From a bacterium (GTDB lineage: Bacteria; Bacillota_I; Bacilli_A; RFN20; CAG-826), in contig CAVEMS010000001.1 in NCBI GenBank assembly GCA_963616935.1, positions 33,273 through 97,272 of the forward strand: a DNA stretch of 64,000 nt, in the 5' to 3' direction. The position numbers and the translations under genes are program-made. Position 1 is the stretch's first letter. Each line of letters starts with the position of its first letter. Shown piece after piece: positions 13,894 through 17,378 of this stretch. The notes beneath the pieces were generated by a model. It was not told the origin of the DNA. It saw nothing but the letters and a program-made list of their open reading frames with translations, and did no database searches.

Positions 13894-16515
13894 ATGGGAA
13901 GAAGCGACCAAAAGAAAACTCCATATGTCGACGCCATTCGCAAATACGTAAAAGAAGACGTTTCGCCTTTCGATGTCCCAGGACATCATATGGGCAACAT
14001 CGACAATGCGGCGACCGATTTATTCGGGCGCGAGGTATATCGTTGCGATTTGAATGCGCCTCTTGGCATGGACACGTTGTCGCAGCCTGGCGGCGTCATC
14101 AAAGAAGCCACGGGCCTGTTGGCGGAAGCGTGCCACGCTGATCACGCCTTCTTTTTGATCAATGGCACCTCGAGTGGCATCATCGCCATGATTCTGACGG
14201 CCGTCAAAGCGGGCGAGAAGATTCTTTTGCCTCGCAACGTTCATAAATCGATAATCAATGCGATCGTTTTGTCTGGCGCCATTCCGGTATATGTGATGCC
14301 AGCCATCGATCAGGATTTGGAAATCGCCAACCAGCCATCGCTTGAGGATTGGAAGAAGGCGATAAACAAAAACCCCAGCGCAAAAGCGGTTTTCGTCATC
14401 AATCCGACCTATTTCGGCTCCGTCGGACCGCTTAAGCAGATAGTCGATTACGCCCATTCGAAGGGAATGGCCGTTCTTTGCGACGAAGCCCATGGTGCCC
14501 ATTATTATTTCCATCTTCCGAATCAGCCTCTTAGCGCGATGGATGCCGGCGCGGATATGTCGAGCGTCTCTTTCCATAAGACCGCCGGTTCTTTGACTCA
14601 AAGCAGCGTTTTGCTTATGCATACCGAAAGATTTTCGCCAGAAGACGTTCAGGTTTCGCTAAACATCATCAACACTACCTCGCCAAGCACGATATTGATG
14701 GCCTCAATCGATGCCGCAAGGGCCTATATGGCCTCGAATGAGGGCAAAAAGGCGATGGAAGAAACGTATCGTCTTAGCAAATACGCCAGAAACGAAATCA
14801 AGAAAATACCTGGTTTCCTAGATAAGGGGAAAAGGCATTTCTTGGCCAATGGCTCATATGATTACGACGAAAGCAAACTCGTTATCGGCATCGACAAATT
14901 GGATTTGGATGGTTTTGATCTATATCGTTTGCTCAAAGAGAAATACGAAATCCAGATGGAACTTGCCGAGACTTATGCGATTTTGGGCATATTGGCTATC
15001 GGAACGAAGAAGAAGCACATCGATCGTTTGATAGAAGCGCTCAAAGACATATCCAAGGAGCATTATCATCCGGAGCTTAAGTACGAGGACCATCATTTCG
15101 ACAATACCTTCCCATTCCAACTAGTACGTCCAAGGAGCGCTTTCCATGCGCCTGGCAAAATCCTTCCAATCAACGAATGCGTGGGTTATATATCGAAAGA
15201 GCAAGTGATGATGTATCCGCCTGGCATACCTTTGATCGCGCCAGGTGAGGTATGGAGCAAGGAACTAGTTGATAGGGTCGTCTTCTTCAAAAAGAGGCAA
15301 GAGAAGGGGATGAAGCTCCTTTCCTCCTACCCAAACGGCTTTCAAGTCATCGATAACGCCAAGTGGAAGAGATTCCCGACTTATGAGAAGAGGCTTCATG
15401 ATTATTGGAAGAGCAAGAAGACGCTTCCGGCGCTAGATGGATATACCTTGCCATTTGAAGGTGATAAGCATAGCGCGACCCTCATTCTTATGCCCTTTAG
15501 GAAAGACACCTGGAGAGATGGCGCCATTCCGGCCACTAAAGCGTATATCGACGTCATTAAAGCGGTATCCGCCCACGAAAAGGTCTATGTCGGAATCCAT
15601 CCTTCCATTTATCGCAAAATCGCACCTTTGTTCCAGGATATCCCGAATGTTTCGCTATTGTCGATCCGCTATAACGACGCTTGGGCGAGGGACAATATGC
15701 CTCTTTTCCTAACCAATGGGCATCAAATAAGGACCGTCGATTTCCGCTTCAACGCTTGGGGTGGAACGGTTGATGGGCTATATAGTAACTATCGCGACGA
15801 CGATAAACTTGGGCAAACGATCAGCAAACGGTTGAAATTATTGTCCTATTATCATCCTTCCTTCGTCTTGGAAGGGGGATCGATCGCTAGCGATGGCGAA
15901 GGGACGATCATCGCCACCGAGGCATGCCTTCTTTCGAAGGGAAGGAATCCCACTTTACGGAAAGAAGAAATCGAAGAGACGCTTCGAGAGTATTTAGGCG
16001 CTGAGAAGATCGTTTGGGTGCCGCACGGCATCTATCAAGACGAAACGAATGAGCATATCGATAATATGGTGGCCTATATTAAGCCAGATGAAGTGCTAAT
16101 GGCTTGGACGGATGACAAGAAGGATCCGCAACACCGATATTGCGTGGAGACCTATCGCGCTTTAGCGAAAGCCAAGGATGCGAAGGGGAGACCGTTTATC
16201 ATCCATAAGATGCCGTTACCGAATCCGCCATTGCATCTTAGCAAAGAAGAAACGATGGGGCTACGAGTCAGCAAATCGACTTTGGATAAACGGGTTGCCG
16301 GGAGGCGTTTGGCGGCTTCTTATATCAATTTCTATCAAGGAAATGATTTCGTGGTGATGCCTTCTTTCGGCGTCAAGGAAGACGCCCTTGCCAAAGCGAT
16401 GATGGAAGAACTTTTCCCGAATAAAGAGATCCATCAGATCGATAGCCTTGAAATATTGCTAGGCGGAGGCAATATCCATTGCATCACGATGCAGATACCG
16501 GAGGTCAAAAAATGA
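13894..16515 (+). CDS. Bifunctional fusion protein: N-terminal Orn/Lys/Arg decarboxylase-family arginine decarboxylase (SpeA-like) and C-terminal agmatine deiminase (AguA-like)
   Basis: The N-terminal roughly 500 aa carry the PLP-lysine region SFHKTAGSLTQSS and the FDVPGHHMG start typical of Orn/Lys/Arg decarboxylases. From about aa 510 onwards comes LPALDGYTLPFEGDKHSATLILMPF..., ending in GGNIHCITMQIP, the agmatine deiminase/PAD active-site Cys motif. The reading frame is continuous with no stop. Confidence 0.75.
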   Translation: MGRSDQKKTPYVDAIRKYVKEDVSPFDVPGHHMGNIDNAATDLFGREVYRCDLNAPLGMDTLSQPGGVIKEATGLLAEACHADHAFFLINGTSSGIIAMILTAVKAGEKILLPRNVHKSIINAIVLSGAIPVYVMPAIDQDLEIANQPSLEDWKKAINKNPSAKAVFVINPTYFGSVGPLKQIVDYAHSKGMAVLCDEAHGAHYYFHLPNQPLSAMDAGADMSSVSFHKTAGSLTQSSVLLMHTERFSPEDVQVSLNIINTTSPSTILMASIDAARAYMASNEGKKAMEETYRLSKYARNEIKKIPGFLDKGKRHFLANGSYDYDESKLVIGIDKLDLDGFDLYRLLKEKYEIQMELAETYAILGILAIGTKKKHIDRLIEALKDISKEHYHPELKYEDHHFDNTFPFQLVRPRSAFHAPGKILPINECVGYISKEQVMMYPPGIPLIAPGEVWSKELVDRVVFFKKRQEKGMKLLSSYPNGFQVIDNAKWKRFPTYEKRLHDYWKSKKTLPALDGYTLPFEGDKHSATLILMPFRKDTWRDGAIPATKAYIDVIKAVSAHEKVYVGIHPSIYRKIAPLFQDIPNVSLLSIRYNDAWARDNMPLFLTNGHQIRTVDFRFNAWGGTVDGLYSNYRDDDKLGQTISKRLKLLSYYHPSFVLEGGSIASDGEGTIIATEACLLSKGRNPTLRKEEIEETLREYLGAEKIVWVPHGIYQDETNEHIDNMVAYIKPDEVLMAWTDDKKDPQHRYCVETYRALAKAKDAKGRPFIIHKMPLPNPPLHLSKEETMGLRVSKSTLDKRVAGRRLAASYINFYQGNDFVVMPSFGVKEDALAKAMMEELFPNKEIHQIDSLEILLGGGNIHCITMQIPEVKK

Positions 16516-17378
16516 TCGTCAAAGTGGCAATAACGCAGTTTTCGATGTCTTCGGAGTATGAAGAAAACATCAAAAAAGCCAAAAATCTAGTGCAAAACGC
16601 GGCTAAAAATGGCGCGAACGTGGTTTTGCTTCCTGAGCTATTCGAAGGCAAATATTTTTGCCAGATCGAGGATTACGCCAATTTCGATTTGGCGGAAGAG
16701 GTGGCGGAATCGAAAACCATCAAAACCTTTCAAGAGGTTGCGAAAGAGAATAATGTCGTCTTGCCGATTTCCTTTTTCGAAAGAAGCGGCAACTCCTATT
16801 TCAATTCCATGGCGATGATCGATAGCGACGGCTCTTTGCTTGGCGTATATAGGAAGAGTCATATTCCAACCGGCGAATGCTATGAAGAAAAGTTCTATTT
16901 CACGCCCGGTGACACTGGCTTTAAGACATTCAAGACGCATTTTGGGATGATAGGGGTTGGCATCTGCTGGGATCAATGGTTCCCAGAAGCTGCCAGAATC
17001 ATGGCTTTACAAGGGGCCGAACTCCTTTTGTATCCGACGGCGATTGGGTCTGAGCCGGTGCTCCCAAAGGATAGCAAGCCTCATTGGCAAAACGTCATGA
17101 AGGGCCATGCGGCCGCCAATATGGTTCCGGTTTTGGCTTCTAACCGTGTTGGCATCGAAAAAGCGAAAAACAGCGAGATGAAGTTCTTTGGCTCTTCATT
17201 CATTTGCGATAACCATGGCGAAATGGTGACGGAGATGGATAGAGAAGAAGAAGGATATAGAGTTGCCTCATTCGATTTGGAAACACTAAAGAAAGAAAGA
17301 AGAGATTGGGGAGTCTATCGCGATCGAAGAATCGATTTATATGATCCGATTCTGACGACGGATGGAAAGAAAAACTAA
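16512..17378 (+). CDS. aguB: N-carbamoylputrescine amidase (CN-hydrolase family)
   Basis: Nitrilase-superfamily sequence (MIVKVAITQF...VVLLPELF...GICWDQWFPE). Its ATG overlaps the TGA of the upstream fusion gene (ATGA), indicating translational coupling. Confidence 0.75.
   Translation: MIVKVAITQFSMSSEYEENIKKAKNLVQNAAKNGANVVLLPELFEGKYFCQIEDYANFDLAEEVAESKTIKTFQEVAKENNVVLPISFFERSGNSYFNSMAMIDSDGSLLGVYRKSHIPTGECYEEKFYFTPGDTGFKTFKTHFGMIGVGICWDQWFPEAARIMALQGAELLLYPTAIGSEPVLPKDSKPHWQNVMKGHAAANMVPVLASNRVGIEKAKNSEMKFFGSSFICDNHGEMVTEMDREEEGYRVASFDLETLKKERRDWGVYRDRRIDLYDPILTTDGKKN

Follow-up and report, generated by a model that had tools for sequence, protein, structure and literature searches.

A predicted bifunctional decarboxylase-agmatine deiminase and a coupled AguB: a candidate two-gene route from arginine to putrescine in uncultured Bacilli

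[quoted passage not shown] The catabolic AgDI systems of lactic acid bacteria share the AguA reaction but combine it with an antiporter (aguD), a putrescine carbamoyltransferase and a carbamate kinase. Such systems are the source of 2EWO (Streptococcus mutans) and 2JER (Enterococcus faecalis), the bacterial AguA structures closest to the present protein. Fusions are also known among enzymes of polyamine synthesis. In Fusobacterium, an ancestral-form ornithine decarboxylase (ODC) is joined to an arginase/agmatinase homologue in a protein of 783 aa, and the C-terminal domain, of arginase fold, probably lacks activity according to the prediction of Li et al. 2021 (PMC8503589); protein P0150 has the same architecture. 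Fusions of SAMDC with aminopropyltransferase (Green et al. 2011, as cited in PMC6356823) likewise join, as far as that citation describes them, consecutive enzymes of a polyamine pathway, although the enzymes and the pathway step are different.

The locus described here, found in a window of 64,000 nucleotides (the whole stretch of DNA that was analysed), has the same enzyme families as the separate-protein route and would carry out the same three reactions, except that the first two enzymes form a single polypeptide with a structured junction of approximately 30 residues. Its deiminase half is 38–41% identical to the solved agmatine deiminases and has the same active-site residues, whereas its decarboxylase is of the ancestral AAT-fold type rather than the alanine-racemase-fold SpeA type of plants and many bacteria. 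In contrast to the AgDI systems, N-carbamoylputrescine would be hydrolysed by a nitrilase-family amidase, and agmatine would be made in cis rather than imported. Unlike the Fusobacterium protein, in which the C-terminal arginase-fold domain lacks the metal ligands, the window protein carries a pentein-fold PAD_porph domain with intact catalytic residues, and the activity of its decarboxylase partner is predicted to be that of an ADC. The fusion is a variation on a known pathway, assembled from well-known enzymes.

Composition of the fusion gene and aguB

The fusion gene (13894..16515, + strand) is an uninterrupted reading frame for a predicted bifunctional decarboxylase-agmatine deiminase of 873 aa, which begins with ATG and has its stop codon within that range. 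The ORF listing gives it as a single plus-strand frame of 875 aa (13888..16515), counted from a TTG codon; the start at TTG 13888 was dropped in favour of ATG 13894 because the alignments of homologues begin at the latter, the position from which the initial annotation also counted. The initial annotation had proposed an in-frame union of the two enzymes, and the Pfam and TIGR03380 domains do fall within this one frame, with a length of 873 aa when counted from the ATG.

The decarboxylase module (13894..15348, residues 1–485) is an ancestral-form AAT-fold Orn/Lys/Arg decarboxylase that matches Pfam families OKR_DC_1 (PF01276, residues 9–304, 2.9e-65) and OKR_DC_1_C (PF03711, residues 376–470). 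The expected PLP-lysine motif SFHKTAGS occupies residues 226–233; within its S-x-H-K core (S226-F-H-K229), K229 (codon 14578–14580) aligns with the S-T-H-K lysine of Escherichia coli LdcC. A DEAHGAH motif is found at residues 197–203, and these motif residues, including K229, are invariant in 68 aligned homologues. Foldseek matches for this half are LdcC, LdcI, ODC and 2X3L. The N-terminal receiver-like wing is absent: PF01276 begins at residue 9, and alignments to extended-form decarboxylases start at their residue ~129, past the wing.

The deiminase module (15448..16500, residues 519–869) is covered by PAD_porph (PF04371, residues 519–869, 2.9e-102) and exceeds the curated cutoff for aguA (TIGR03380, residues 511–869, 414.4 bits versus 381.8). 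The catalytic-cysteine motif noted previously, GGNIHCITMQIP, lies at residues 858–869 and contains C863 (codon 16480–16482). This residue, together with H721, D723, D600, E660 and E717, aligns with C357, H218, D220, D96, E157 and E214 of the E. faecalis enzyme, so that all six of the active-site residues checked, which comprise the catalytic Cys/His/Asp and acidic residues that bind the guanidinium and amine groups, are present, and all six are invariant in the 68 homologues; PMC6447857 describes what the Cys/His/Asp triad and the guanidine-binding Asp do. This half matches 2EWO, 1VKP, 2JER and 6NIB in the PDB (1e-80 to 1e-85), and the AF2 model shows a five-bladed alpha/beta propeller (pentein) fold that Foldseek superimposes on 3H7C, 6NIC, 2JER and 2EWO with TM-scores of 0.92–0.96 relative to the target and rmsd values of 1.5–2.5 Å. 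As judged by its sequence, this half is a complete agmatine deiminase, predicted to convert agmatine to N-carbamoylputrescine.

The two modules meet in a junction (15349..15447, residues 486–518) which, by comparison with unfused relatives, consists of the C-terminal tail of the decarboxylase (VID..W..Y..) followed by the N-terminus of the deiminase (T.P..DG). Its W491 and Y504 are invariant, and its mean conservation is 0.63–0.64 versus 0.69–0.77 in the domains. The AF2 monomer model of the whole protein has a mean pLDDT of 89.6 and a pTM of 0.85, and pLDDT stays at ~90 across the junction, which is confidently modelled as a conserved helix (residues 495–507).

The downstream gene, aguB (16512..17378, + strand, 288 aa), encodes an NCPAH that scores above the TIGR03381 cutoff (427.6 versus 410.25 bits) and matches MtCPA (5H8I) with E=3e-100. 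Its triad E42, K115 and C152, along with E126, aligns with Glu48, Lys121, Cys158 and Glu132 of MtCPA. The aguB ATG (16512–16514) overlaps the TGA of the fusion gene (16513–16515) in the sequence ATGA (16512–16515), in agreement with the coupling recorded in the initial annotation. A Shine-Dalgarno sequence GGAGG, read from the sequence, lies at 16500..16504 (+ strand), where the fusion gene has not yet ended; this sequence and the match to the start of the HMM alignment led us to prefer ATG 16512 over TTG 16479 as the aguB start.

The fusion start codon itself is not preceded by a Shine-Dalgarno sequence. A possible extended -10 element, TGcGATAAT (13878..13886, + strand), lies 7 nt upstream of it, and about a dozen of 17 related fusion loci, inspected by eye, likewise show a -10-like hexamer approximately 5–15 nt before the start and no Shine-Dalgarno sequence. 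This assignment is tentative; a consensus scan of 10900–18700 for promoters and terminators gave counts no higher than the shuffled expectation, yielded no usable signal and called no promoter at 13878..13886. An Rfam scan of the whole window gave no matches and hence no sign of a riboswitch or leader.

The predicted route and its role

We consider it very probable that the bifunctional fusion and AguB together constitute an arginine-to-putrescine route encoded in two genes. The PLP-dependent N-terminal decarboxylase would convert L-arginine to agmatine, the C-terminal deiminase would convert agmatine to N-carbamoylputrescine and ammonia, and the translationally coupled AguB would release putrescine, CO2 and a second ammonia, so that two genes would cover all three reactions. 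Both halves and AguB are full-length and either pass curated thresholds or retain all active-site residues that were checked. Many genomes conserve them as a unit: aguB is the next gene after the fusion in 18 of 18 fused loci and after aguA in all six split loci.

The pathway probably serves to supply putrescine, although the 6 kb around each fusion locus contain neither speE or speD nor a gene for a polyamine transporter. A Pfam scan of the window ORFs of at least 150 aa detected no antiporter, putrescine carbamoyltransferase or carbamate kinase, and the genes that recur beside related loci include none of these. Because the third enzyme is a nitrilase-family NCPAH and catabolic genes are missing from the scanned ORFs, a biosynthetic role is favoured over a catabolic one, as the initial annotation had argued. 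Its statement that a catabolic pathway is ruled out was too strong, since the window represents only 64 kb of the genome.

The same chemistry could instead serve pH homeostasis or nitrogen release, with putrescine as an exported by-product: the overall balance is arginine to putrescine, 2 CO2 and 2 NH3, and decarboxylation takes up a proton. Arginine fermentation is common in the gut and rumen, and the fusion is carried by uncultured Bacilli, of which at least some were sampled in the gut or rumen. In addition, the spermidine-synthesis genes speE and speD, which accompany many of the unfused relatives, are absent from the 6 kb around all 24 fused or split loci. We nevertheless regard such a role as unlikely. 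Neither the window nor the related loci show a linked gene for an amino-acid/amine antiporter or another exporter, and the use of NCPAH gives up the ATP that is obtainable through the catabolic carbamoyltransferase/carbamate-kinase route. Furthermore, the acid-inducible members of this decarboxylase superfamily are extended forms with a REC wing (PMC8503589), which is missing here.

Substrate of the decarboxylase half

L-Arginine is the inferred substrate of the decarboxylase, on the basis of operon logic and of its relatives. Assigning specificity by percent identity to characterised enzymes proved uninformative and was abandoned, as the fused domain is 43–45% identical to the Clostridium difficile homologue and to Clostridium homologues of unassigned specificity alike; among ancestral-form decarboxylases, ADC and ODC cannot be told apart by sequence identity. 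To our knowledge, no specificity-determining residues have been established for these enzymes. Gene context provides indirect support. In six related genomes (L018–L023), speA, aguA and aguB are separate and adjacent; in the outgroup locus L027, an Arginase-family (speB-like) gene is ATGA-coupled to the decarboxylase gene; and a speB-like gene stands beside the decarboxylase in 22 of 38 non-cyanobacterial unfused relatives (L028–L065), 20 of which also have speE. The 22 include the locus of C. difficile, whose ancestral-form ADC is listed as characterised (PMC8503589). A YaaO identity was ruled out, as tmk does not adjoin the window decarboxylase; it adjoins the decarboxylase in none of 80 loci, so that none of them is of the YaaO type. 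In the window, the slot upstream of tmk is occupied by recR.

Should the decarboxylase half act on ornithine or lysine, the polypeptide would combine two independent diamine entries, ornithine being converted directly to putrescine and scavenged agmatine to N-carbamoylputrescine. Two precedents and the failure of percent identity to discriminate specificities speak for this reading: the ancestral decarboxylase of Clostridium botulinum is an ODC even though AIH and NCPAH are encoded in the same genome, and so is the decarboxylase that Fusobacterium fuses to an arginase/agmatinase-like domain (Li et al. 2021, PMC8503589). It appears very unlikely, however, given that the whole clade and most Firmicutes outgroups are linked either to AIH and NCPAH or to an Arginase-family speB-like gene, and that the deiminase half is catalytically intact by sequence, as opposed to the dead arginase-like domain of Fusobacterium. 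The Bacilli enzymes assayed by Li et al. 2021 showed ADC activity only, and both of the homologues from Bacilli newly assayed there were arginine-specific (PMC8503589).

Conservation, origin and possible function of the fusion

By analogy with the Fusobacterium fusion, one half of the protein might be a non-catalytic pseudo-domain with a structural or regulatory role. A divergent metagenomic relative, P0130 (863 aa), demonstrates that such decay occurs in the fusion architecture, as its decarboxylase half is well conserved but all the deiminase active-site residues checked are replaced. For the window protein this is highly improbable, considering that the checked active-site residues of both halves are invariant in it and in 68 aligned homologues and that the deiminase half scores above a curated equivalog cutoff.

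The fusion is genuine. Neither a stop codon nor a frameshift, the refuting results named in the initial annotation, is present in the region around nt 15349–15447; a Logan assembly of run SRR13434647 contains an identical 873-aa protein with the same neighbours, and members of its cluster (≥90% identity) also occur on three other NCBI contigs. A database search for similar architectures recovered the same in-frame fusion of both domains in at least 120 clusters of proteins, defined at 90% identity, which are 59–100% identical to the query and cover 98–100% of it, apart from one partial sequence (91%). The in-frame fusion is present in 18 species-representative genomes. The notion that an assembly or sequencing error merged two adjacent genes, which a 1-nt change could do given that the genes are separate and overlapping in relatives L018–L023 and L026, is effectively refuted by the identical protein from an independent read set, by the several contigs and by the frame and the conserved, co-linear linker, which persist in at least 120 distinct clusters with identities as low as 59%.

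The closest unfused counterparts are the speA-aguA-aguB operons L018–L023, from MAGs labelled Anaeroplasmataceae or Mollicutes, which contain orthologous genes in the same order (53–56% identity for the decarboxylase, 47–50% for the deiminase and 59–62% for AguB). Here the first two enzymes are encoded by two ORFs in different frames, with an overlap of 26 nt in L018 and a gap of 5 nt in L022; in L018–L021 the decarboxylase tail is co-linear with the fusion linker. Because the ORFs overlap in unfused relatives, the fused and split forms would be interconvertible by a single frameshift, and their occurrence in sister lineages illustrates how overlapping coupled genes and fusions can pass into one another. 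In the decarboxylase tree the split sequences branch next to the fused L015 as its sister group (90% bootstrap), which means either that it arose by secondary fission of an ancestral fusion or that the fusion arose twice.

The fusion would guarantee 1:1 production of the two enzymes and fix the arrangement of their active sites, and agmatine would be consumed where it is made. Strong product inhibition has been reported for ancestral-form decarboxylases (PMC8503589); consumption of agmatine at its source would relieve it. Channelling of agmatine is a plausible hypothesis. The more specific proposal that a rigid bifunctional assembly hands the agmatine made at the PLP site directly to the deiminase, with no build-up of free agmatine and hence no product inhibition, is possible but doubtful; if true, it would provide a naturally occurring example in which to study how metabolites are channelled during polyamine synthesis. 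Under this proposal, the slow ancestral decarboxylase would be the beneficiary. AAT-fold decarboxylases work as dimers, whereas the closest solved deiminases (2EWO and 2JER) are tetramers. Several observations hint at recurrent selection for physical coupling of the two activities: the conserved junction helix with the pTM of 0.85, the metagenomic protein P0206, in which a non-homologous alanine-racemase-fold decarboxylase has been fused to AguA, apparently independently, the continued attachment of the deiminase half in P0130 despite its lack of catalytic residues, and the apparent fusion followed by fission (or two origins) within one clade.

If it works as we infer, the protein performs two successive steps of putrescine synthesis on one naturally occurring chain and forms with AguB a compact two-gene cassette from arginine to putrescine. 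Biochemists who study polyamines could use it as a manageable system in which to examine the effect of fusion on product inhibition and on the channelling of agmatine, and it would be a ready-made part for the engineering of putrescine production. No account of a decarboxylase fused to a deiminase turned up in full-text literature searches, which did not extend to Burrell et al. 2010 (JBC) or Green et al. 2011 (Mol Microbiol). The fusion is real but less exceptional than the initial annotation implied, as public databases already contain this conserved family with automatically assigned names. These labels vary among 'agmatine deiminase', 'lysine decarboxylase' and 'arginine decarboxylase', and pathway reconstructions may therefore miss the capacity to make putrescine from arginine in uncultured Bacilli, including some from gut and rumen, an annotation problem that the present assignment would correct. 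An antisense ORF within the fusion gene (14020–14622, − strand, 200 aa) was discarded as a shadow of the conserved coding strand, since it recurs in two loci only, both with the conserved sense gene.

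Gene structure and distribution of the fusion

The decarboxylase-deiminase gene occupies a single ORF without interruption in the window (13888..16515, plus strand), and alignment of homologues places its start at the ATG at 13894, yielding a protein of 873 aa. Pfam assigns OKR_DC_1 to residues 9-304, OKR_DC_1_C to residues 376-470 and PAD_porph to residues 519-869, while the NCBIfam agmatine-deiminase equivalog TIGR03380 matches residues 511-869 with 414.4 bits (cutoff 381.8). The in-frame fusion proposed in the initial annotation is therefore borne out, together with its two motifs: SFHKTAGS, which contains the PLP lysine K229 (codon at 14578-14580, plus strand), and GGNIHCITMQIP, which contains the catalytic cysteine C863 (16480-16482, plus strand). 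The start codon of aguB (16512-16514, plus strand) overlaps the TGA of the fusion gene (16513-16515) in the ATGA arrangement described there, a GGAGG sequence lies ahead of it at 16500-16504, and the encoded protein scores 427.6 bits against the N-carbamoylputrescine amidase model TIGR03381 (cutoff 410.25). A minus-strand ORF of 200 aa inside the decarboxylase region (14020-14622) was found again only at loci with a conserved sense sequence (L006, L013) and was rejected as a shadow ORF.

An artefactual joining of two ORFs is contradicted by the Logan assembly of SRR13434647, which encodes an identical 873-aa protein with unchanged neighbours; the cluster to which the protein belongs also has members on three further NCBI contigs. 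An NCBI contig of 274 kb encodes an identical protein. Protein searches retrieved at least 120 clusters at the 90% identity level, 858-899 aa long and 59-100% identical to the fusion, all of them with both domains and nearly all covering 98-100% of its length. A collection with one genome per species has at least 18 members (L001-L017, L025) in which aguB directly follows an in-frame fusion gene. Clustering at 50% leaves essentially one representative, P0129, plus the divergent singleton P0130, so the fusions form a single, fairly shallow family. It is found in uncultured bacteria whose labels are Bacilli, Erysipelotrichaceae or similar; Staphylococcaceae, Lachnospiraceae and Bacteroidales also occur as labels, probably through loose binning or naming.

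Both the route from arginine to putrescine and the three families of enzymes on it are textbook knowledge, and such a fusion is not surprising in principle, because fusions of polyamine enzymes have precedents. The closest one described, the ornithine decarboxylase (ODC)-arginase-like fusion of Fusobacterium, has a partner domain of another fold that is predicted to be inactive, and it also differs in decarboxylase specificity. In the full text of openly readable papers we came across no account of a decarboxylase joined to a deiminase; public databases already contain the sequences, with 'agmatine deiminase', 'lysine decarboxylase' or 'arginine decarboxylase' as automated names. The fusion is real, conserved and so far uncharacterised, and should be moderately interesting to those who study polyamines or the gut microbiome.

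Active sites, fold and decarboxylase substrate

Agmatine deiminases with solved structures, from S. mutans, Arabidopsis, E. faecalis and Medicago, match the deiminase half with E-values of 1e-80 to 1e-85. This half had been described as complete, and all six active-site residues considered are present: C863, H721, D723, D600, E660 and E717 align with C357, H218, D220, D96, E157 and E214 of the E. faecalis enzyme and show no variation among the 68 homologues aligned. Work on the Medicago enzyme describes what the Cys/His/Asp triad and the guanidine-binding Asp do (PMC6447857). K229, in the decarboxylase half, lines up with the PLP lysine of E. coli LdcC (motif S-T-H-K). Since the match to the extended decarboxylases begins past their receiver-like wing, the decarboxylase half is of the type that Li et al. 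2021 (PMC8503589) define as the 'ancestral form'. AguB matches Medicago N-carbamoylputrescine amidohydrolase (NCPAH) with an E-value of 3e-100 and keeps the Glu-Lys-Cys residues as E42, K115 and C152. An AlphaFold2 model of the fusion, built from 68 sequences, has a mean pLDDT of 89.6 and a pTM of 0.85, with junction residues 495-507 forming a helix (pLDDT ~90). Foldseek pairs the N-terminal half of the model with LdcC, LdcI, ODC and 2X3L, and the C-terminal half with agmatine deiminases (TM-score relative to target 0.92-0.96); no solved chain among these matches spans both halves.

The assignment of arginine as the substrate of the decarboxylase calls for caution, because in C. botulinum the ancestral decarboxylase is an ODC although the genome encodes agmatine deiminase and NCPAH, and because an ODC is fused to a dead arginase-like domain in Fusobacterium (Li et al., PMC8503589). 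Percent identity did not discriminate between arginine decarboxylase (ADC) and ODC specificity for this domain. We infer arginine from the context, which is consistent throughout. By sequence, the fusion partner is an intact deiminase domain of an agmatine-specific family; speA, aguA and aguB are adjacent but separate in six related genomes (L018-L023), and in the Acholeplasma-labelled outgroup L027 an Arginase-family gene is ATGA-coupled to the decarboxylase gene. Firmicutes usually keep the SpeA paralogue yaaO immediately upstream of tmk; in the window yaaO is absent from this canonical site, which is held by recR, and tmk adjoins the decarboxylase gene in none of 80 loci, so none of them is YaaO-type. 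Among 38 non-cyanobacterial unfused relatives (L028-L065), 22 have a speB-like gene beside the decarboxylase gene, 20 of these with speE as well; the 22 include the locus of C. difficile, whose ancestral-form ADC is listed as characterised (PMC8503589). The Bacilli enzymes tested by Li et al. had arginine activity only (PMC8503589).

Predicted pathway and physiological role

Two genes would provide three predicted activities, converting arginine to agmatine, N-carbamoylputrescine and finally putrescine. The fusion may impose a fixed 1:1 stoichiometry and allow agmatine to be consumed where it is produced. Such a benefit is attractive because ancestral-form decarboxylases are slow, with kcat/Km of ~4×10^2 to 2.4×10^3 M^-1 s^-1 for the ADCs among them, and because the product of the preferred substrate exerts 'strong product inhibition' on them (PMC8503589). 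Conservation of the junction helix and the high pTM of the model argue for a fixed domain arrangement and not a loose tether. Judging true channelling, as envisaged in the initial annotation, needs the quaternary structure; the deiminase structures solved for bacteria and plants vary in oligomeric state between monomer and tetramer (PMC6447857).

The evidence speaks for biosynthesis rather than for the catabolic agmatine deiminase system (AgDI): the third enzyme is predicted to be a hydrolase, and among the scanned window ORFs of at least 150 aa Pfam showed neither an antiporter nor a putrescine carbamoyltransferase nor a carbamate kinase. To this extent, and for the 64 kb of the window, the earlier argument against an AguD/AguA pathway is supported, although 'rules out' is too strong. 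Neither speE nor speD was found near any fusion locus, and a function in releasing ammonia or controlling pH is a less probable alternative.

Origin, surroundings and related fusions

The junction, residues 486-518, starts as the C-terminal tail of the decarboxylase (VID..W..Y) and continues as the N-terminus typical of deiminases (T.P..DG); each of these is recognisable in unfused proteins. The unfused speA and aguA overlap by 26 nt in different frames in L018, overlap as ATGAATAA in L026 and are separated by 5 nt in L022; because these ORFs overlap or nearly touch, one indel would be enough to turn a split pair into a fusion or back again. Neighbour-joining analysis of the decarboxylase domain, with bootstrapping, groups the six genomes with split genes (Anaeroplasmataceae/Mollicutes-labelled MAGs, L018-L023) in a clade with 100% support that is sister to the fused L015 (90%), and monophyly of all fused sequences receives 2%. 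By manual count, the spacing from W491 to P512 is equal in the window, L015 and the L018 decarboxylase tail, and the tails of L018-L021 are co-linear with the fusion linker. Two independent fusions are possible; the tree position of the split clade, the low support for monophyly of the fused sequences and the equal spacing favour, with the moderate strength of a distance tree, one ancestral fusion followed by frameshift fission in an Anaeroplasmataceae-like lineage. In L026 (Bacillales bacterium UBA6879, 7014-8079), aguA downstream of speA matches in two different frames (query residues 9-134 and 203-364) near a contig end, which points to a possible pseudogene or to a possible error of assembly; the gene directly upstream of speA is metK.

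No Shine-Dalgarno sequence precedes the fusion gene within 13878-13896, where a -10-like hexamer (TGcGATAAT) ends 7 nt ahead of the ATG. A TATAAT-like hexamer occurs ~5-15 nt before the start in about a dozen of 17 related loci inspected by eye (from L001-L017, L025). This combination tentatively suggests that the two-gene operon has its own promoter and an mRNA that is leaderless or nearly so.

In related genomes, an RluA-type pseudouridine synthase gene follows 0-4 kb after aguB or mntP, and then DUF1538/P-II and YfhO genes; the window orthologues lie at 43389-50166. The intervening ~25 kb (18300-43300) encode mostly glycoside hydrolases (GH2), two DUF4838 proteins, Ig-like surface proteins, an AraC regulator and an ABC sugar-transport system, and look like an inserted carbohydrate-utilisation island. 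The conserved Firmicutes block dnaX ... recR-tmk-holB-yaaT(PSP1)-rsmI occupies 50156-56250 (minus strand). ORFs of 639, 554 and 542 aa at 1043-6431, and of 161, 196 and 292 aa beside an ABC ATPase at 25659-27557, gave no Pfam match at the thresholds used.

In P0130, a divergent 863-aa relative of the fusion (an ENA metagenome singleton), the decarboxylase half is well conserved and the positions of C863, H721, D723, D600 and E660 are all replaced. Its deiminase half looks like a dead pseudo-enzyme still attached, resembling the dead domain of the Fusobacterium case; as a singleton it needs confirmation. The same holds for P0206, a 1051-aa ENA metagenome singleton found on two contigs; both proteins came from an exhaustive representative search. 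Its N-terminal half is of the alanine-racemase fold and SpeA-like (Orn_Arg_deC_N and Orn_DAP_Arg_deC; NF003763 162 bits, below cutoff) and its C-terminal half is a genuine agmatine deiminase with 445 bits on TIGR03380, so that P0206 looks like a convergent ADC-deiminase fusion using a non-homologous decarboxylase. The representative search also returned agmatine deiminases joined to 5-formyltetrahydrofolate cyclo-ligase (P0178, 556 aa) and to a 400-residue N-terminal region without annotation (P0199, 754 aa), and an ancestral decarboxylase joined to an NNMT/PNMT-type methyltransferase (P0139, 734 aa).
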